Shown: positions 464-28,173, counted from the first letter of the stretch. The stretch is 64,000 nt of DNA from Candidatus Woesebacteria bacterium (GCA_016432365.1 CP066686.1:627992-691991); one strand, 5' to 3'. A program made the numbers and translations. Notes: a model not told the origin generated them from the letters alone.

Positions 464-1528
464 ATGAAAAACAATATTAAGTGTCCTCATTGCGGCAAAG
501 AATTTGAAGCAACCGAAGCTCTTAAGCACGAAATTGAAGAACAGGTCGGTGCAGCTTTGTCTGCAAAACACAAGACAGAAATCGAGGAAATAAAAAGAAA
601 AAGCGAAGAAGAATCAAAAGCGCGGGTTGAAAAACTTACAAATCAAATATCCGAACTTTTGGATGAAATTAAAAAACTCCGGGAGAAAGACGAAGAGCGG
701 GAGATCGAAATGAAGAGAAAATTAATTCAGGAGGAGGAAAAAATTAAAGTGGAAGTCCGACAAAAAGCGGAAGAGGAGCACAAATTAAAAGACTTGGAAA
801 AGGACAGCAAACTTCAACAAGCTTTGGATCAAATAGAATCCCTTAAAACGAAAATTCAGCAGGGTTCACAACAAACTCAAGGTGAAACTTTGGAGTTGGA
901 ACTCGAAACAAAACTTAGAGAAGAGTTTCCTACCGATAAAATTTTAGAAGTTAAAAAAGGACAAAGGGGGGCCGATGTTGAACAAGAAGTGGTGGATAAA
1001 CTGGGTAGATCCTGCGGAAAAATACTTTGGGAAAGTAAGAACGCCGAGTGGAGTAACGGATGGATTTCTAAACTGAAAGAAGACCAGCGCCAAGCCAAAG
1101 CCGATTTGGCGGTTTTAGTTACAGTAAATTTACCGGAAGGAGTAGACAGTTTTGCTTATCGCGAAGGAGTTTGGATAGTAAGTTGGAAACATTTTATTCC
1201 ACTTTCCTGGTCCTTGAGGTTTAATTTGGTGAGTTTGTTCCACGAAAGGACTTCAAGTGAAGGTAAAGACGAGAAAATGAAGATACTTTATGCGTATTTA
1301 ACCGGAACCGAGTTTAAAAACAGAGTAGAGGGGATAGTGGACGCATTTAGTAATTTGCAGGAAGAACTGGAAAAAGAGAAAAGATATTTTAATGTAAAAT
1401 GGGCAAGACAAGAAAAGGAAATTCGAAAAGTAATAGATCATACCCATGGAATGTATGGAGACTTGCAGGGGGTAGTTGGCAAGAGTTTGCCCGAAATTAA
1501 AAGTTTGGAGTTGGGAAACGGAGAATAG
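464..1528 (+). CDS. DUF2130-family protein: N-terminal zinc-ribbon (CPHCG), a long coiled coil, and a C-terminal nuclease-like region
   Basis: N-terminus MKNNIKCPHCGKEF followed by a K/E-rich coiled coil, typical of DUF2130. Confidence 0.55.
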   Translation: MKNNIKCPHCGKEFEATEALKHEIEEQVGAALSAKHKTEIEEIKRKSEEESKARVEKLTNQISELLDEIKKLREKDEEREIEMKRKLIQEEEKIKVEVRQKAEEEHKLKDLEKDSKLQQALDQIESLKTKIQQGSQQTQGETLELELETKLREEFPTDKILEVKKGQRGADVEQEVVDKLGRSCGKILWESKNAEWSNGWISKLKEDQRQAKADLAVLVTVNLPEGVDSFAYREGVWIVSWKHFIPLSWSLRFNLVSLFHERTSSEGKDEKMKILYAYLTGTEFKNRVEGIVDAFSNLQEELEKEKRYFNVKWARQEKEIRKVIDHTHGMYGDLQGVVGKSLPEIKSLELGNGE

Positions 1529-2549: not shown

Positions 2550-3470
2550 TCATTTTGAAGCTTTCTTCTCTTCCCTTTCCCTCGCCCTATCTCCCTGTGC
2601 TTCCCAAACATCCTGGAAAGCTGAACCGGCTTCACCATAAACGCTGTCGGCGACTTCCAAGATTGTAAAGACAGATACATCTTCCGGAACGCCTTCGTCT
2701 GCCCACCTCCAAAGTTTGTTTAGGTCTCTTACATGGTCTCCGTCGACTCCCTGAGCTAACATTCCGGCATGAACCTGATTAAAAATTGCCAATGCTTTCT
2801 TTCTCTCGAGAGCTGTCCAGTCATCAGATAAAAGTGCACTGGTGAGCTCGCTTTTTTCAACAATTGGGGAATCGATAATCGCAGTTGGTTGCGCCTCAAT
2901 TCTGTGTCTGAATAGGAGTCTATCCTGAGAAAATTGGTTACGCATTTCATCAAAAACAGATTGTGCTATTTTTTGGCGCATCTGCCTTAGTTTGGGGTTA
3001 TCCGCCCTGGTTTCGACGATTGCGGTGCAAATCGCGGATGCCAAGTCTATCCGGTCTAATAACTTGTTGGCACTTCCGACATTTTCAGCGCTTTCTATAA
3101 TTGATTTCTCATCTTTTGTTTGATCAAAAAAACTCATATATATGTTTAAAATAGACTCTGCCAACCCATCCTTTTCTAAAGCAGCGGCTATTTCGCGATT
3201 AATTTCCGAAAACTTATCGAGCGCAGTGTTTGCAAGCTCGTTAGCAACTTCGGCTTCAGCTTTGGGAAGACCCGGATTTCTGCTTAAATTGTCGAGTGTG
3301 GCCCATGCTTTTTCTACCCGTTTTTGGCTGTTTGCCCAAAGTACTACAGTATCTTTAGAGTCTTTGTCGATATCTAAGATAGAAATATGGTCAAATTCGG
3401 GGTCCCCCGGACCGCCAATATGAGGAATTGGAAAGAGTACTCGGTTTGAAGTATCGGGTCTAATTTCCAT
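2550..3470 (-). CDS. Hypothetical protein. Compositionally GC-richer than the backbone. Start uncertain: the track start at 3563 would overlap the divergent neighbour.
   Basis: Long ORF with no recognisable motifs. The internal Met (MEIRPDT) gives a non-overlapping start. Confidence 0.45.
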   Translation of the reverse strand: MEIRPDTSNRVLFPIPHIGGPGDPEFDHISILDIDKDSKDTVVLWANSQKRVEKAWATLDNLSRNPGLPKAEAEVANELANTALDKFSEINREIAAALEKDGLAESILNIYMSFFDQTKDEKSIIESAENVGSANKLLDRIDLASAICTAIVETRADNPKLRQMRQKIAQSVFDEMRNQFSQDRLLFRHRIEAQPTAIIDSPIVEKSELTSALLSDDWTALERKKALAIFNQVHAGMLAQGVDGDHVRDLNKLWRWADEGVPEDVSVFTILEVADSVYGEAGSAFQDVWEAQGDRAREREEKKASK

Positions 3471-3552
3471 ATATTTTGGATTATACACCAAATACTCAAT
3501 TTCGACGGGCAATATTGAAGGTCCGGAAGCATTGGTGTACAATCCTGCCCAA

Positions 3553-4272
3553 ATGGAGAGCAAAGAAAAGGTAAGCCCAATGAGAGAGTTGTATTTGGAA
3601 GTGACGCGGGCGAGAGAAGTATTGAATGAAGTATTTTTTACTAGTACACCCTTCGTTATGCTGGGTTATAGCCCACGCGAAATCGCTGTTATCCATGGCC
3701 TTTATGACAGAGCGCGCAATGGGGGGGCGAGTGCGGCCGGCGCCTCATTTCCGGGTTGGTGGCATCATGGAGCAAGGTTTGAGGGGGAGTTGGGAGACTT
3801 TACAGTTAATGTAAGCAGGGAAAGAGACTTTGCGTGTTACGGACTGGTGAGTATCGAAACGCAAATTGAAAACGGTTTTAGCACCGCCTATATGCCACAA
3901 CTCTTTCTCTTAAGCAAGGTGGGAAATACTGGTTCTTTAGAACCTTACGAGATTACCCGAAAGGTGTTGTCCGGCGGAATTTATAGACCACACACCGGGT
4001 TATCAAAGTCAGTCGCAAAAATCCCAGGCTTAGAACATCTTGCGAATCGCCGAAGATACGAAAGTGTCTGGTTAGACGAGAGGACAAAAACAGGTCTGGT
4101 AATTAGACTTACCGAACCAAACCACATAATACTTTTAAGGAAGATTTCAAATAGTGCTGAGGAATATGAGGTTTGGGGGATAAAAAAGGATCCTGACCAG
4201 GCAATGTTGGAAAAAGTTTTATCCGAATCGAAGGTTGCAGCAACCCAAGCATTACCCGAACTCTCTTCTTGA
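3553..4272 (+). CDS. Hypothetical protein, divergent from the gene at 2550-3470
   Basis: ORF track. Start at MESKEK or MRELYL. No family recognised. Confidence 0.45.
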   Translation: MESKEKVSPMRELYLEVTRAREVLNEVFFTSTPFVMLGYSPREIAVIHGLYDRARNGGASAAGASFPGWWHHGARFEGELGDFTVNVSRERDFACYGLVSIETQIENGFSTAYMPQLFLLSKVGNTGSLEPYEITRKVLSGGIYRPHTGLSKSVAKIPGLEHLANRRRYESVWLDERTKTGLVIRLTEPNHIILLRKISNSAEEYEVWGIKKDPDQAMLEKVLSESKVAATQALPELSS

Positions 4273-4342
4273 GCGGCCAGGGGGAGTCGGACCCCCGTTT
4301 GTACCTTGGGAAGGTACCGTTAGGCCGTTTAACTATGGCCGC
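4272..4342 (-). tRNA. tRNA-Gly (anticodon CCC). The T-loop reads TCCGACT, which is atypical.
   Basis: Manual fold of the reverse complement: acceptor GCGGCCA/TGGCCGC, D-stem GTTA/TAAC, anticodon stem GTACC/GGTAC with loop TTCCCAA, T-stem GGGGG/CCCCC. Confidence 0.5.
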
Positions 4343-4416: not shown

Positions 4417-7400
4417 ATGGATATTGGTGAAAAGCCCGTTTTTGTAAAACGGGAACGTATGTTAATAGATTCAAAAGTTGAGGTTAAATATCCCGAAAAA
4501 ACTTGGTCGGTAGAGCAGTCATATCGTGATATATATCAAAACCATTTGGATGCTCAGTTCAAACTTTGTGTGAACTCACTTCTTTTAGATCTCTCACAAG
4601 TAGCTAACGCGGACCCAGATGAAATTCTGGAAAACAAAGAAATGCGTAAGGTGGCATATGAATATTTGGCGACAAAAAGTATGGTGGGCAAAGATATTCA
4701 AAATCAGATGATTGTTTTTTTGATGCAAGGAATTGGGGCAAAATCGGAAGAAGAAACAAATTTAAGAAATATTATTGAAGAACACAACTTGCAAACTCCA
4801 GACGTGGAAGTTTTGGTAAGATCTGATGCAGGAGACACCGTCTGGTTAAAAAAAGATGAAATTTCGAGGGATGAGCTTCAGAATTCTCGAATTGTAGGGT
4901 TTAGGATTAGTGACGATGGTACAGGTTATGACGCAAACCTTAAAGCTATGTTTTATTCTTCGGGTAAAGATTCACCTGATCAGATTGGCAAATTTGGTGA
5001 AGGTGGCAAAATGAGTGAGATACTATTACAACAAAAAGGCTTTCGAGTGGAATCTAGGTCGGCTTATGATTTTGATGACGAAAGTGGAAGACACCACATA
5101 CTTTGGAAAAGCAGGCCAAGAAAGTCAGAGGAGGGTTCGATGGAACTTCAAGTAACTAAAGTTGAGTTGGATAAATCAATACCAACAGGGTCAGTTACAG
5201 AAGTTATTTTTAGAGATGGTGAAGTAAAACAAGATGATGTGAGAAATCTAACGGAATGCATTAAATCATTGGGTCCGATACAAATACTTTACGACGTTCA
5301 CAGAGCCAACAACCTCACATTTGTCTATCCCTATTACGAACCTTCAAAACCATTGTTGGGAGTTAGCAAGTATTATGACGGTCTTATGGTGCAAGGGATT
5401 AGAGTAGAGCCTGTAAATACAAAGGAAAAAATATTGTTGGGTTACAGCACTTTTGATAAAGATGCGCTGATTGCTCGTGACAGAAATAAATATTCTGATG
5501 AGTTTTTACATTCAGTTGAAGATTTTTGGCTGAATGCTGACCCGTCAACGATTAGGCTTTTTTTTGATAAACTCGAACAATTGCGAGGTAAACAAGATGT
5601 TTTTAGATCTTTTGAAGTTGAAACTTTTAATAAAATTCTTAGACACTATTCAGGAGATGAGTTAAATGCCTCGGAGGAAAAAGTTCAGGCGTTTATGAAA
5701 AATGTGTTACAAGAAGTGTTAAGAAGGAGCAAAGTTAACGATTATCAAAGGATTTACTTCAAATCTGGAAGCGAGCGTTACGATTTTGCATTTTTTTTAG
5801 ACCACGATGTTAAAGTAGTAGATACTGCAGAATGGGGGATCCATTTTGATAGAAATTTCCTCGAAAGCTATTTGGGTGATCGATATGTATCCCCCAACGA
5901 GTTAAGAAAAAAGGTAAGCCGTAAAGACATTTCTAAAGATGTTGGTCAACTAACAGAACAAGAAGCAAAAGATGCACAAGATTGGTATGAAAACGTATTA
6001 AATTTTGTAAATTCATCAGCTGGGTCAAACGAAGAAAACAACCCCTTTGGTGGTTATTATATGTCTCCAAAATTTGTTAACGATGGCCCGGCATTTGCTG
6101 TAGTGTCAAATCGCGACGATGACTTATTAGAAGACTTGTGGGAGATTCATGTAGACAGAACATTACAAATTAACTGGAAAGCAATAAAAGACTCTGATAA
6201 TAGAAAATATCTAGAAAGGGAGCTTGCCGTATATATATTTGCATACAAATACTCTGGCTTTGGCGAATTTCATTTTTATTCTGCTCAAAATATGGCTAAC
6301 GATTTGATTAGAAGGAATTGGCAAGATGCAGTTGACTATAAGAGTATTGGAATTGACTACAAGGTTAAAACCGGCGAGTTTATAAAGATATTTGAGGGTT
6401 TAAGATCTGTTGAAATTGCAGAAAATGTAGCCGCTTTTAATATTGTTCAAAAACTTACAACTTCAGTTGTCGAGACAGTTGACGTGTATGATGCCTGTGA
6501 ACTTTTAAATACATTCAAAAGGCTGGACACAAGACTTTTGGATATTTTGACAAAAAACATATTTAGAACCAAAGACGGTTTTGCAAGATATACGGTAAAT
6601 GAACAAGGTGAGTATGTAGTAAATAACTTTGGTTTTGATGAGATGGAGCAAGTAGGCGACGTTGACGGTATGAAAGCATATAAATTTGGTGACTATGTAT
6701 TTTTAGAAGTTCCCAGATTTGATTATATTAAACATAAAAATGAAATAGTTTATAGACACGAAAATACGCTTTACAGGTCTTCACCTAGTAACATCATTTC
6801 TTGGGAGGTGGAAGTTGAAAACGAGGTTAAGTTTGGCGAAGGTTTTTGCTATTTCAAAGTTTATAAATCAACGGAAGATATCCGTAGTCAGGTTGCCAAT
6901 GTTACTTCGCAATTTGTTTTGGTAGACAAACGTAGCCAAGTGCCAAAGGCAACCAAATTAAAAGACGGTTATGTAGCCACCTCTGTCTCACTTGAATATG
7001 GTAAAGGAAATTGGGACAAACCAATTAGATTTTTTGAAGATATCGTACAAAATCATCTTAATGCCGGCGAAGTATCGATTAAATATATGCTTACAAGGGA
7101 CGGCTCAACCATTTGGGTAGAAAAAGAAGACATGCAAGTTGGGGAAAAAATACTCGGGGTAGAATTTTCTGATAACGGTCGTGGTTATGCACCTGAAAGT
7201 TTGGAAAGAATGGGCAGAACAGAGAAAAGTAGCCCACTTGATGAAGGTAAATATGGCGAGGGAACAAAAATGCTTTTAGCAGCCGCTTGCAGGAATCAAA
7301 TTGACCTTGAGTTTTCCTCGAATTGCCAAAGGGATGGCGTTCAAATGACTTGGAGGGCTCATGCAGAACAAGGTTCACGTCAGATTGTAGAAAATGGTAA

Positions 7401-8496
7401 AGTTGCCGAAGTTAAAATGGCGGGATTTGCTTTGGGCACTTCAGACGTTGTTAACACCGGGTCTACAACAAGAATAGTTTTTAACGACACAACCTCGGAG
7501 TTTTATGTGGAGTGTTTGAAAGTATTGGATCCAATGGGGGGTGACGGGGGTTTAAGCAGATATGTACGAACTCTTCCGGGAGGTGTGCCAATATCTAGTT
7601 CAGTTGGCCCTGTAAAAGTATTGGCCGATAGTAAAGGTGATATTTATGAAAATGGTTTGCTAATGAGTACAGAAAAAATGCTTTTAGGTAGCTTTGATGT
7701 CCCGGATGTTTCTGCCACAAGGGAACGTGACACTGTTAAGGCTGAATCAATGAAACAGTATGTGGATTTTGTTTTGTCCCATACTACCGACAGGGCGCTA
7801 GTTGCAAAGATACTTAAAGGTGCAGTTGAGGGCGGACTTTACGGTTATTTGGACACTAAAAATTTATTTGATGGCAAAAAGGTAACCCCAATAAATTTAG
7901 GAATCTGGCAAACTGCGGCTTTAAATTCGTTTTCTGATGTAATAATAGACGATATTAGTTTGCCAGATAGTGCTAGCAGGTACTTGAGGTACAACGGGTA
8001 TAATAAACGAATACATGTACATGGAAGGGATGGTAAAGATTTGCTGATGAAAGAGTGTTTCCCCACAGTTAAAGGTTTAATAGAAAGAAGTAGGACTTTG
8101 CCAACTGAAATACCCCAAAATACTCGGGAAAAAGTTAATGAAGTTGTTGATATTTTGGCCGACGAGGTTTTAAAAATTGTAGATTCAGGTGGTTTGGGGG
8201 ATGTTAAAAATCAAGAATTTGTGGCGGTGCTACGCGACAAACAAAGGCTTCACAGTACAATTGAATATTCAAAAATACATCCATTTATATTAGGTGAGGC
8301 AAAAGGAGATGATTTTAGGACCGTTATAAGTGAGTACCTCTTGCACGATACAAACGATTTAAATATGGTACTTTTACACGAATGGGCACATCATTTAACC
8401 GAACATGGTGACCTCGACGTTAAGTTTATTGCTGGCTTACTGGGGATCGCATGGGGAAACGGCAATAAGGTCAAAAGAAATAAGGTCAAATATTAG
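4417..8496 (+). CDS. Giant protein (1359 aa) with two GHKL/Bergerat-fold ATPase domains (sacsin/MutL/Hsp90/MORC-like) and a C-terminal HExxH zinc-peptidase-like motif
   Basis: Domain 1: N-box DIYQNHLDAQ, G1 ISDDGTGYD, G2 IGKFGEGGKMS. Domain 2: DIVQNHLNAGE, FSDNGRGY, GKYGEGTKM. C-terminal LLHEWAHHLTEHGD. Confidence 0.8.
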   Translation: MDIGEKPVFVKRERMLIDSKVEVKYPEKTWSVEQSYRDIYQNHLDAQFKLCVNSLLLDLSQVANADPDEILENKEMRKVAYEYLATKSMVGKDIQNQMIVFLMQGIGAKSEEETNLRNIIEEHNLQTPDVEVLVRSDAGDTVWLKKDEISRDELQNSRIVGFRISDDGTGYDANLKAMFYSSGKDSPDQIGKFGEGGKMSEILLQQKGFRVESRSAYDFDDESGRHHILWKSRPRKSEEGSMELQVTKVELDKSIPTGSVTEVIFRDGEVKQDDVRNLTECIKSLGPIQILYDVHRANNLTFVYPYYEPSKPLLGVSKYYDGLMVQGIRVEPVNTKEKILLGYSTFDKDALIARDRNKYSDEFLHSVEDFWLNADPSTIRLFFDKLEQLRGKQDVFRSFEVETFNKILRHYSGDELNASEEKVQAFMKNVLQEVLRRSKVNDYQRIYFKSGSERYDFAFFLDHDVKVVDTAEWGIHFDRNFLESYLGDRYVSPNELRKKVSRKDISKDVGQLTEQEAKDAQDWYENVLNFVNSSAGSNEENNPFGGYYMSPKFVNDGPAFAVVSNRDDDLLEDLWEIHVDRTLQINWKAIKDSDNRKYLERELAVYIFAYKYSGFGEFHFYSAQNMANDLIRRNWQDAVDYKSIGIDYKVKTGEFIKIFEGLRSVEIAENVAAFNIVQKLTTSVVETVDVYDACELLNTFKRLDTRLLDILTKNIFRTKDGFARYTVNEQGEYVVNNFGFDEMEQVGDVDGMKAYKFGDYVFLEVPRFDYIKHKNEIVYRHENTLYRSSPSNIISWEVEVENEVKFGEGFCYFKVYKSTEDIRSQVANVTSQFVLVDKRSQVPKATKLKDGYVATSVSLEYGKGNWDKPIRFFEDIVQNHLNAGEVSIKYMLTRDGSTIWVEKEDMQVGEKILGVEFSDNGRGYAPESLERMGRTEKSSPLDEGKYGEGTKMLLAAACRNQIDLEFSSNCQRDGVQMTWRAHAEQGSRQIVENGKVAEVKMAGFALGTSDVVNTGSTTRIVFNDTTSEFYVECLKVLDPMGGDGGLSRYVRTLPGGVPISSSVGPVKVLADSKGDIYENGLLMSTEKMLLGSFDVPDVSATRERDTVKAESMKQYVDFVLSHTTDRALVAKILKGAVEGGLYGYLDTKNLFDGKKVTPINLGIWQTAALNSFSDVIIDDISLPDSASRYLRYNGYNKRIHVHGRDGKDLLMKECFPTVKGLIERSRTLPTEIPQNTREKVNEVVDILADEVLKIVDSGGLGDVKNQEFVAVLRDKQRLHSTIEYSKIHPFILGEAKGDDFRTVISEYLLHDTNDLNMVLLHEWAHHLTEHGDLDVKFIAGLLGIAWGNGNKVKRNKVKY

Positions 8497-8665: not shown

Positions 8666-9118
8666 TTATTTAATACGGTTAGTCACCTGCCAGGTGACGT
8701 TGATTGATGTTTCCCCGCTTGGGTATACAGCAGTGACAAGCCAGGTGTCTTCTCCGCGTGTCAGAGTCAAAAACTTCAGTTTTAGAATAACTTTATCTCC
8801 GGCTTTGAGATCGTACAAAAAACATGTCTGCTTCTCTGCGAGCTCTTGTCGACCAAACAAAAACTTGTAATCTTTGTCGATGTAGAGCATTCTCGTTCCG
8901 ACTGAATGTTGGAACCCTGTGTACGAGTAAATTGTCAAACTCTCAAGGTCTTCGTTCACAGTGATTTTCAAGTCAACCTGACCCATTCTGTATGGGGGCA
9001 ACATTGCGTCTGCAATGGCCTCTATAGTAACGGGACCAAAGCTTTCAGCCTTGGCTGTGCCGGCGGCGCTGCCCAACAACAGAACGAACAATGCAAGAAA
9101 CACGGAAACCTTTTTCAT
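8666..9118 (-). CDS. Small secreted protein with a signal peptide (paralog A)
   Basis: N-terminus MKKVSVFLALFVLLLGSAAGTAKA. GC-richer than the backbone. Confidence 0.65.
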   Translation of the reverse strand: MKKVSVFLALFVLLLGSAAGTAKAESFGPVTIEAIADAMLPPYRMGQVDLKITVNEDLESLTIYSYTGFQHSVGTRMLYIDKDYKFLFGRQELAEKQTCFLYDLKAGDKVILKLKFLTLTRGEDTWLVTAVYPSGETSINVTWQVTNRIK

Positions 9119-9344: not shown

Positions 9345-9839
9345 TTAGCGAGGAAGCACCTCGAGAGGCAATTCCATATAAATTGGATCTAAGGTGTCTT
9401 GCATGACCCAAACAGGAAAATAGTCAACACCGAGCTTGACGGCCTTGTATTTAAACTTGATTGTTATTGTATCCCCCGGGACCAGGTAGCCAAAGGCACA
9501 GAGTTGATCCTCGAATACCGGCATGATTTTTGGATTGCGGAAGAAATACCAACAATATTGGTAAAATTTTCCGTTAAACTGAACAAGCCAACTTACCGGT
9601 TCAACATGCGTCAAACCTTTTGTGCTGGTATCCACCCTGACGGAAAACACTTCCGCGCTGCCCACTCTGATCCGGATATAAGCCGTGCTCACCTGTCCCA
9701 CATGGGCCGAGGTCGTTTCTCCTGAAATATACAGGGGAGGCACGCCACCGTCAGTGTTTGACTGTGCATATGCCGGAACCGCCAATCCAAACATGACAAC
9801 TGAGATCAAAACGACGAAAAGATACAATTTTCTTTTCAT
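9345..9839 (-). CDS. Small secreted protein with a signal peptide (paralog B)
   Basis: N-terminus MKRKLYLFVVLISVVMFGLAVPAYA. Weak similarity to paralog A (GDKVILKLKF versus GDTITIKFKY). Confidence 0.65.
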   Translation of the reverse strand: MKRKLYLFVVLISVVMFGLAVPAYAQSNTDGGVPPLYISGETTSAHVGQVSTAYIRIRVGSAEVFSVRVDTSTKGLTHVEPVSWLVQFNGKFYQYCWYFFRNPKIMPVFEDQLCAFGYLVPGDTITIKFKYKAVKLGVDYFPVWVMQDTLDPIYMELPLEVLPR

Positions 9840-11680: not shown

Positions 11681-11777
11681 ATGTATTTGTTTCCGCCGAC
11701 TTGGCGGGAATAACACAGACGCTGTCGCTTCGTGCGGGCCCTGCCTCGCTGGAACCGAAGCTTTAGCGAGGTGAAAG

Positions 11778-11851
11778 CGGGATCGACGAGATTCGGACTC
11801 GCAACCTCTTCCGTGACAGGGAAGCGCTCTAGCCAGTTGAGCTACGACCCC
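11778..11851 (-). tRNA. tRNA-Asp (anticodon GTC)
   Basis: Canonical cloverleaf: acceptor GGGGTCG/CGATCCC (one GU pair), D-arm GCTC-AACTGGCTA-GAGC, anticodon stem CTTCC/GGAAG with loop CTGTCAC, T-arm GCGAG-TCCGAAT-CTCGT. Confidence 0.85.
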
Positions 11852-27456: not shown

Positions 27457-27541
27457 GCGGGTGCTAGTTTAGTGGCAAAACGTTTGCATATGAGGCATGC
27501 TGATTATGCAAAAATCGAGGGTTCAAATCCCTTCACCCGCT
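27457..27541 (+). tRNA. tRNA-like gene 1 (85 nt). Canonical acceptor, D and T arms, but an aberrant anticodon arm: an 8-bp stem TTTGCATA/TATGCAAA enclosing a 14-nt loop with a GCATGC palindrome. Possibly a Leu(GAG)-like type-II tRNA; identity is uncertain.
   Basis: Acceptor GCGGGTG/CACCCGC, D-arm GTTT-AGTGGCA-AAAC, T-arm GAGGG-TTCAAAT-CCCTT. There are 53 nt between the acceptor and T-stem instead of 41. Confidence 0.5.
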
Positions 27542-27631
27542 TTTGGTGGGCACCGATCAAAAACCCTGTCTGGGACCAGATGGCAACAGTCGAAGATTGT
27601 TGAGCTGATGGGGTGTCCACCATTTTTCACC

Positions 27632-27704
27632 GGCGCCGTGGCCAAGTGGCAAGGCACAGGCTTAAGCAATACCTGGATCCGAGGTTCGAATCCTTGCGGC
27701 GCCT
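27632..27704 (+). tRNA. tRNA-like gene 2 (73 nt). Class-I length, but the anticodon stem is only CAGG/CCTG around a 9-11-nt loop CTTAAGCAATA containing a GCTTAAGC palindrome. No canonical 7-nt loop can be formed.
   Basis: Acceptor GGCGCCG/CGGCGCC is perfect. T-arm CGAGG-TTCGAAT-CCTTG. D-loop AGTGGCA. Confidence 0.5.
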
Positions 27705-27825
27705 TTCGGGAAATAGTGCCCATAAAACCCGACATTTAGCACCAGATGCTGGTGACTGAGTGGAATGCTGAGGTTCAGGAGTGGACATTACTGGACCATT
27801 TAGTAAGTTCTTTAAATTCTTTTGT

Positions 27826-27898
27826 GCGGGTGTAGCTCAGTGGGAGAGCATCTCCTTTTGTAAGGAGAAGGTTGGAGGTTCGAGTCCTCTCACCCGCT
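27826..27898 (+). tRNA. tRNA-like gene 3 (73 nt). Canonical, except for an 8-nt anticodon loop TTTTGTAA (Thr-TGT-like with one extra nucleotide).
   Basis: Acceptor GCGGGTG/CACCCGC, D-arm GCTC-AGTGGGA-GAGC, anticodon stem TCTCC/GGAGA, T-arm GGAGG-TTCGAGT-CCTCT. Confidence 0.55.
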
Positions 27899-27982
27899 TT
27901 TAGTGGGCGCCAGTCGGACTCTTTATCCGTCTTGGTAGACTGATCAGGATCCATGGTCCAAAATTGGTCGTGCCCACTATCT

Positions 27983-28056
27983 TGGCCGGTAGCTCAGCCG
28001 TTTAGAGCACTCGACGCGAAATCGAGTTGTCGGAGGTTCAAATCCTTCCCGGCCAG
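27983..28056 (+). tRNA. tRNA-like gene 4 (74 nt). Well-formed cloverleaf with anticodon loop CGCGAAA, which is Ser-CGA-like but has G at position 33 and a class-I body. The 1-72 pair is U-A.
   Basis: Acceptor TGGCCGG/CCGGCCA, D-arm GCTC-AGCCGTTTA-GAGC, anticodon stem CTCGA/TCGAG, T-arm GGAGG-TTCAAAT-CCTTC. Confidence 0.5.
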
Positions 28057-28173
28057 CTTGCCAATTACCTACGTCCTCAGGATGGAGGGTAAGCGGCAGA
28101 TAGGTGCCATAGATACCGCCATGCCAAAGCAGATGCGGCAGGACAAGGTGTTTGTGGCACTTAGAAATTATCA

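Follow-up and report, generated by a model that had tools for sequence, protein, structure and literature searches.

Tandem GHKL ATPase modules joined to a C-terminal zincin domain in a widely conserved Patescibacteria protein family: a plausible new ATPase-protease coupling

Introduction

GHKL ATPases drive nucleases, topoisomerases, chaperoning and chromatin compaction, and those of the class comprising MutL, Hsp90, the type II topoisomerases and MORC are dimers in which nucleotide binding closes one ATP-binding domain against the other, a basic residue of the transducer domain sensing the gamma-phosphate. To our knowledge, the well-studied ATP-dependent proteases are all AAA+ rings, and we know of no case in which a GHKL ATPase drives a protease. 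Here we analyze a gene at positions 4417..8496 of a 64,000-nucleotide stretch of DNA from Candidatus Woesebacteria (CP066686.1:627992-691991; hereafter the window, meaning the whole stretch), whose product, QQG41212.1, combines two GHKL modules with a C-terminal domain of predicted zincin fold. As far as can be judged from sequence and predicted structure, the folds are known, the architecture is undescribed and widely conserved, and a new coupling of ATPase to protease is plausible.

ParE/GyrB, topoisomerase II (topo II), MutL, MORC2/3/4 and SMCHD1 are homodimers, whereas QQG41212.1 has both modules in one chain. The GHL/MORC enzymes use a catalytic Glu and a switch Lys, where QQG41212.1 has an Asp and an invariant R-[DE]-R loop; unlike them, it has no DNA-binding, nuclease, Toprim, CW or coiled-coil part, and its effector is a predicted protease. 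Compared with the Hsp90 family (HtpG, TRAP1 and GRP94), QQG41212.1 gives no significant sequence match to the Hsp90 N-domain and lacks the C-terminal dimerization domain, but carries a duplicated ATPase and a fused predicted protease. The sacsin SRR (NF047352 for bacterial look-alikes) likewise has repeated Hsp90-like ATPase modules in a long chain, with a motif I of the Q-N-x-x-D-A type. Among metalloproteases, Wss1/WLM and SprT/Spartan have His as the third metal ligand, whereas QQG41212.1 has an Asp at +7 and no ubiquitin-, SUMO- or DNA-binding module. The minigluzincins (proabylysin, projannalysin and selecase) are free-standing and take a Glu on a later helix as third ligand, whereas the zincin of QQG41212.1 ends a 1359-residue ATPase and has an invariant Asp seven residues past the second His. 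FtsH, a functional analogy only, likewise joins an ATPase and an HExxH metalloprotease in one polypeptide, but it is a membrane-anchored hexamer built on an AAA+ ring, in contrast to the GHKL clamp fold of QQG41212.1, which has no transmembrane (TM) segment.

Results

Two ATPase modules in one polypeptide

The gene encodes a protein of ~155 kDa that matches exactly an NCBI entry annotated as 'hypothetical protein HYV90_03475' of Candidatus Woesebacteria, a lineage of the Candidate Phyla Radiation (CPR), on a 1.08-Mb contig. An earlier note on this DNA, made from the sequence alone, had proposed a single open reading frame (ORF) of 1359 residues with two Bergerat-fold ATPase domains and with neither a signal peptide nor a TM helix, and our analysis bears this out: the ORF was recovered at the same place, no signal peptide was found at the hydrophilic N-terminus, and no TM helix was found, the best 19-residue Kyte-Doolittle mean being 1.01. 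The parts of the ORF, with approximate domain boundaries, are as follows.

4417..8496, plus strand: whole ORF, ATG start, 1359 aa, predicted cytoplasmic, NCBI QQG41212.1
4438..5211, plus strand: module 1 GHKL (Bergerat) ATP-binding domain, aa ~8-265
5212..5556, plus strand: second domain of module 1, transducer-like, aa ~266-380, whose R354-D355-R356 loop is invariant
5557..6948, plus strand: 'mid' scaffold, aa ~381-844
6949..7482, plus strand: module 2 GHKL ATP-binding domain, aa ~845-1022
7483..7791, plus strand: second domain of module 2, transducer-like, aa ~1023-1125, whose R1102-E1103-R1104 loop (T-R-E-R-[ND]) is invariant
7792..8181, plus strand: helical linker domain, aa ~1126-1255; each module of compact relatives is followed by one
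8182..8451, plus strand: minimal zincin domain, aa ~1256-1345, with three short strands, the HExxH helix and a second helix
8377..8427, plus strand: predicted metal-site signature H1321-E1322-x2-H1325-x6-D1332-x4-F1337, invariant in 69/69 long-form relatives

The motifs that had been quoted for the two modules were placed at aa 38 (DIYQNHLDAQ), aa 164 (ISDDGTGYD) and aa 190 (IGKFGEGGKMS) in module 1 and at aa 875 (DIVQNHLNAGE), aa 917 (FSDNGRGYAPE) and aa 944 (GKYGEGTKM) in module 2. The conserved positions of the two modules correspond motif by motif.

Motif I: module 1, D38-x2-Q41-N42-x2-D45-A46; module 2, D875-x2-Q878-N879-x2-[DN]882-A883 (N882 in QQG41212.1)
Motif II: module 1, D166-x-G168-x-G170; module 2, D919-x-G921-x-G923
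Motif III: module 1, G191-K-F-G-E195-G196-x-K198; module 2, G944-K-Y-G-E948-G949-x-K951
Motif IV: module 1, G258-S259; module 2, S1016/T1018
Transducer loop: module 1, R354-D355-R356; module 2, R1102-[ED]-R1104 (family pattern)

Conservation was taken as column counts in an alignment of 69 full-length relatives with ~20% mean identity. Despite this divergence, motifs I-IV of both modules are kept in at least 64 of the 69, and most in 66-69. The Mg-binding Asn of the N-box is retained as N42 in 68/69 and as N879 in 69/69; in motif II, D166, G170 and G921 are present in all 69 and D919 in 68/69, and in motif III the residues G191, E195, G196, G944, E948 and G949 are invariant. The Arg pairs of the transducer loops (R354/R356 and R1102/R1104) vary little or not at all, and in the predicted structure they lie in a loop preceding a helix. 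The two modules align with each other both by BLASTP (aa 118-373 against 860-1110, E 2e-11) and by hhalign of the two module alignments (probability 100%, E 8.7e-43, 267 columns); as judged from these sequence comparisons they are paralogues, the duplication being far beyond chance. A helical insert of ~80 residues (aa ~47-125) separates motifs I and II in module 1 and is absent from module 2.

Both structures used here are predictions. The AlphaFold2 (AF2) model of aa 1-1200, built from the 69-sequence alignment, has a predicted local distance difference test (pLDDT) score of 86.8 and a predicted template modeling (pTM) score of 0.82. Foldseek gave the MORC4 ATPase as its top match (E 1e-4), the only one below E 1e-3. 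The structural neighbors and their scores were ParE 43 kDa (13.0), topo II ATPase domains (12.6-12.9), TRAP1 (11.9, with 283 aligned residues), MORC2 (11.4), SMCHD1 (11.3), MORC3 (10.9), MutL (10.4-10.6), GRP94 (9.4), Topo VI-B (9.2), histidine kinases (7.3 or less) and sacsin SR1 (6.0). The alignments extend over 207-283 residues, so that the match spans the GHKL domain plus the transducer domain after it; this coverage therefore points to the gyrase/Hsp90/MutL/MORC class for each module and not to a kinase catalytic domain. In a comparison with E. coli proteins by hhalign, module 2 matched MutL (E 2.7e-5), HtpG (4.9e-4) and GyrB (0.015), the secure part of the alignments to HtpG, MutL and GyrB being confined to motifs I-III.

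With motifs I-III and an alpha/beta sandwich fold, the modules are members of the GHKL (Bergerat) superfamily, and the second domain that is packed on, and co-aligned with, the GHKL domain in the predicted structure would place them in the GHL/MORC class. The earlier note had raised ordinary histidine-kinase domains as the alternative; a sensor histidine kinase is excluded, there being no DHp/HisKA helix with a phospho-acceptor His beside a catalytic ATP-binding (CA) domain, and the kinase structural scores being no higher than 7.3. The same note had likened the motifs to those of sacsin, MutL, Hsp90 and MORC. This likeness holds for the last three but not for sacsin: a sacsin-type ATPase (NF047352/SRR) was rejected, QQG41212.1 giving no match to the model and SR1 not being the closest structural neighbor. 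Between the modules, the mid scaffold is helical up to ~aa 715, after which a beta-rich part follows (aa ~716-836); only long-form members have it, and it is missing from compact relatives of ~1000 residues.

A C-terminal zincin domain

The model of aa 1090-1359 (pLDDT 85.3, pTM 0.75) has the mixed sheet, the active-site helix (aa 1312-1328) and the following helix of the zincin fold. The HExxH motif reported in the earlier note is present as LLHEWAHHLTEHGD at aa 1319-1332, but it does not form the very end of the protein, lying 27 residues ahead of the stop. H1321, E1322 and H1325 are invariant in 69/69 relatives, as is D1332, which by its conservation and its position at +7 from the second His is the obvious candidate for the third metal ligand, and the HExxH-x6-D-x4-F signature also occurs in most compact relatives. 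This invariance, together with the fold, rules out a chance HExxH in a helical region, and the six top matches of the domain are all peptidases.

The domain fits none of the zincin families to which we compared it. Membership of Wss1/WLM and SprT was rejected, since an Asp stands in place of the His, QQG41212.1 has no match to the Pfam SprT-like and WLM models, and the PDB profile E-values for this comparison (0.0076-0.04) are non-significant on their own. The minigluzincins were likewise rejected, being free-standing zincins of ~100 residues with a Glu as third ligand.

Family size, forms and database visibility

In Pfam, QQG41212.1 has one sub-threshold match, to HATPase_c (PF02518) at aa 884-953, with 20.5 bits against a cut-off of 26.4; neither module 1 nor the C-terminus gives any match. 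It has no match above threshold in NCBIfam, no defense-protein model of PADLOC-DB v2 matches it, and phmmer against PDB sequences returned nothing meaningful. Two compact relatives, P0086 and P0159, pass HATPase_c_3 (PF13589) with 27.8 and 31.3 against a cut-off of 25; a newer Pfam entry, PF25856, is precomputed on compact relatives and not on QQG41212.1.

A word-indexed search of 5.8 billion proteins gave 13 relatives, and a re-query with the 69-sequence alignment gave the same 13. When a profile of the C-terminal half was run against 1.84 billion cluster representatives, 483 proteins were found at E<=1e-3, including 126 at E<=1e-30. The family, counted as 483 clusters at 50% identity, is not rare; it is large yet invisible to current annotation models. 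Members from named metagenome-assembled genomes (MAGs) are almost all CPR/Patescibacteria, as far as MAG labels, on which all our taxonomic statements rest, can tell. The literature on GHKL proteins with SprT, zincin or metallopeptidase, together with a survey of MORC/paraMORC, mentions no such fusion or tandem, and the earlier suggestion that the architecture is undescribed thus agrees with our finding no curated model or paper in the libraries and literature searched.

Members were sorted with family hidden Markov models for five segments. The long form, which includes QQG41212.1 and ~100 representatives of 1350-1950 residues, runs module, mid (~460 residues), module, linker, zincin; the compact form, of ~900-1100 residues, runs module, linker, module, linker, zincin. 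A module-linker-module-linker-zincin cassette is also embedded, at ~aa 2440-3353, in P0142, a giant multi-domain protein of 6439 residues with a signal-peptide-like start. Another member, P0009 (1523 residues), comes from a 5.5-kb contig labeled Candidatus Methanomethylicaceae archaeon, so that either the family has rare archaeal members or the contig was misbinned. Phage proteins of ~417 residues, grouped as phrog_6077, are homologous to one GHKL plus transducer module (P0086, 2e-33; P0009, 1.7e-11), but they comprise just one module and lack the zincin, and QQG41212.1 itself gives no PHROG match at E 1e-3. Three IMG/VR phage contigs carry such single-module phrog_6077 homologues of ~417 residues without a zincin (L007:9791-11050, L008:5964-7217 and L009:5141-6394).

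Genomic context and inheritance

The features next to the gene are listed here.

4271..4342, minus strand: tRNA-Gly(CCC), 75 nucleotides from its end to the ATG of the ORF and divergent from it
11777-11851: tRNA-Asp, the other tRNA bounding the segment
2550..3563, minus strand: hypothetical ORF (306 aa in NCBI-style calls)
3532..4272, plus strand: hypothetical ORF, divergent from the preceding one (230 aa in NCBI-style calls)

The earlier note had placed the big gene directly 3' of tRNA-Gly; the tRNA is on the minus strand, and the gene therefore diverges from its 5' side. The big gene has a GC content of 0.376, the 4th lowest of 120 windows, and a promoter/terminator scan of the locus gave no signal exceeding shuffled expectation.

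Loci of relatives were collected by scans that yielded 23 from GTDB species genomes and 45 from metagenomes; because these scans depend on short degenerate patterns, the counts are no measure of prevalence in Patescibacteria. The titles of the GTDB records name Moraniibacteriota, Paceibacterota, Kerfeldbacteria, Saccharibacteria, Parcubacteria and Levyibacteriota. Six Third Party Annotation (TPA) MAG loci (L010-L012 and L015-L017) are titled 'uncultured Gammaproteobacteria' or 'Pseudomonadales', labels that look wrong. For L011 (CAZRGC010000001.1), the label was judged unreliable because its PolX gene, its LysM gene and one more share 60-72% identity with their counterparts in the Woesebacteria window and stand in the same order. 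This locus reads tRNA-Gly(CCC) on the minus strand, big gene, LysM, PolX and next gene; its big gene encodes a protein 55% identical to QQG41212.1, compared with 60-72% for the flanking genes, and to the left of the tRNA the two loci have nothing in common. Given this synteny, the big gene was therefore inherited in place, and the pairing with tRNA-Gly(CCC) marks synteny and plays no part in the function of the protein.

A conserved partner was sought by all-against-all clustering of ORFs from 33 and then 73 loci, and no neighbor family common to independent loci was found beyond generic paralogues; the commonest clusters in the 73 loci were ABC transporters (8), Mur ligases (6) and serine recombinase (5). 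In a Pfam census of 141 neighbors within 4 kb at 24 non-redundant loci, most were housekeeping genes, among them aminoacyl-tRNA synthetases, FtsZ/FtsA, NadA, NUDIX and DnaB, and defense genes were not enriched. The phage and plasmid collections searched gave no match. A tRNA is adjacent in 4 of the 19 loci scanned for it. The big gene is stand-alone and vertically inherited.

These observations divide the earlier picture of an accessory island. The segment is indeed bounded by tRNA-Gly and tRNA-Asp, but the L011 synteny and the housekeeping neighbors rule out an accessory or defense island at the window locus, and the proposed location in a variable or defense island also disagrees with the lack of a partner in 73 loci and with the silence of PADLOC. 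The two divergent hypotheticals at 2550-4272 are compositionally atypical, as the note had stated: their GC content of 0.446 ranks among the highest 3% for windows of that size. Neither matches a Pfam model or has a counterpart in the syntenic L011, and this pair, on the 3' side of tRNA-Gly(CCC), is likelier to be the inserted or variable segment.

In the window, two minus-strand ORFs (8666-9118 and 9345-9839, 150 and 164 residues) with signal-peptide-like N-termini and no Pfam match separate the big gene from the LysM gene; tblastn found no counterpart of either in the L011 locus, where LysM directly follows the big gene. A DUF2130 protein is encoded 3 kb upstream of the big gene (464-1528, plus strand), and DUF2130 occurs near one other family locus (2/~25 loci), probably by chance. 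Elsewhere in the window (27457-28057, plus strand), ARAGORN predicts four tRNAs, His(ATG, 85 nucleotides), Ala(AGC), Tyr(GTA) and Ser(CGA), all confirmed as tRNAs by Rfam; A34 anticodons and an 85-nucleotide 'His' tRNA are unusual for bacteria, and the isotypes may be mis-assigned.

Discussion

Two modules in one chain, both with intact and constrained nucleotide motifs, are most simply read as an intramolecular ATP-operated clamp, a proposal suggested by the tandem arrangement only. A single polypeptide would provide both halves of the clamp, each consisting of a GHKL domain and its transducer, and ATP binding at both modules would close it around a client, the gamma-phosphate being sensed by the invariant R-[DE]-R loops. 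The zincin is the sole other catalytic element, it is equally constrained, and no partner gene accompanies it, from which we infer that closure gates the protease: the closing clamp would position or unmask the C-terminal zincin, which would then cut the captured client. Such a protease would be gated by ATP through GHKL instead of AAA+ modules.

The identity of the client is the weak step of this scheme. A protein client appears most likely, and a clamp-protease acting in quality control or maturation in the style of Hsp90 and sacsin, with a routine or stress role in reduced genomes, is a reading to which we give somewhat less than an even chance. All domains are acidic across the family, with a median isoelectric point (pI) of 5.1-6.4, which we count, weakly, in favor of a protein client; another weak point in its favor is that the transducer loop has Arg, the catalytic residue of Hsp90, in contrast to the Lys of MutL/GyrB. 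Several points weigh against the scheme as a whole. Four residues ahead of the Mg-binding Asn, both modules have Asp (D38 and D875, each in 67/69) in place of the usual catalytic Glu; this carboxylate is one carbon shorter than that of the general-base Glu, and ATP turnover may be slow, switch-like or regulatory. In the hhalign comparison with HtpG, T-R-E-R does not fall exactly on the S-R-E loop. The likeness to chaperones is sub-significant in sequence: the mid scaffold matches the GRP94 middle/C region weakly (E 0.0046), this being the sole PDB sequence match in the N-terminal half, and the matches of compact relatives to the sacsin N-terminal model stay below its threshold, so that these two signals point only marginally to a protein client. 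Finally, some loci have mobile-type neighbors, with serine recombinase at 5/73 loci and Rep and Shedu SduA_C genes at L005.

Were the modules instead to close on DNA, as in MutL, MORC or the topoisomerases, a Wss1/SprT-like zincin could degrade proteins stuck or crosslinked to DNA or remove chromatin proteins. We consider this unlikely: the top structural neighbors are enzymes that act on DNA, and the zincin is similar to Wss1 and Spartan, but TRAP1 and the minigluzincins score equally well, and the candidate third metal ligand is an Asp at +7 where Wss1/SprT have a His. Moreover, the acidity just described extends to every domain, none being basic anywhere in the family, Pfam shows no recognizable DNA-binding domain, and the neighbor analyses show no association with repair genes. 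Another possibility is a single-gene conflict system (anti-phage, abortive infection or anti-mobile-element) in which the modules sense an invader and the zincin effector destroys a host or invader protein. Such a system could explain a large ATPase joined to an effector in a fast-diverging family (~20% identity across members), the single-module phrog_6077 homologues in phages, the adjacent tRNA at 4/19 loci, and the mobile-element neighbors, which besides those mentioned include a serine recombinase, a ParB-methylase and a PDDEXK gene at L002. It nevertheless seems improbable to us, since PADLOC is silent, the neighbors are housekeeping genes without defense enrichment, phage and plasmid collections gave no match, and the gene is syntenic in L011, where it diverges only slightly faster than its neighbors. 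We regard it as very unlikely that the C-terminal domain is not a protease but a metal-dependent regulatory domain or a YbeY-like RNA-cleaving one, which would leave a chaperone or clamp only. YbeY has an H-x3-H-x5-H site without a catalytic Glu, whereas the Glu of HExxH, a peptidase signature, is invariant here (69/69), and the top matches are peptidases throughout.

A broader version of the ATP-gated clamp-protease, which we hold to be possible though rather doubtful, would make this family the first GHKL-driven protease, a self-contained two-module clamp that hands its client to a minimal zincin. Its origin would lie in the CPR, where it would add a fourth route to ATP-dependent proteolysis next to the AAA+ proteases, and in genomes as reduced as these it might replace quality control of the Hsp90/Lon type or clear DNA-protein crosslinks.

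If the clamp is indeed a covalently duplicated GHKL pair, it would offer a natural single-chain model for the ATP-driven dimerization cycle of MutL, Hsp90 and MORC. With 483 clusters, mostly from Patescibacteria and missed by current models, a domain description would therefore clear a sizeable block of 'hypothetical' proteins in CPR genomes. Such a description would also point to lineage-specific protein or DNA housekeeping in organisms not yet grown alone, in which this uncharacterized family may represent a new kind of ATP-gated protease.

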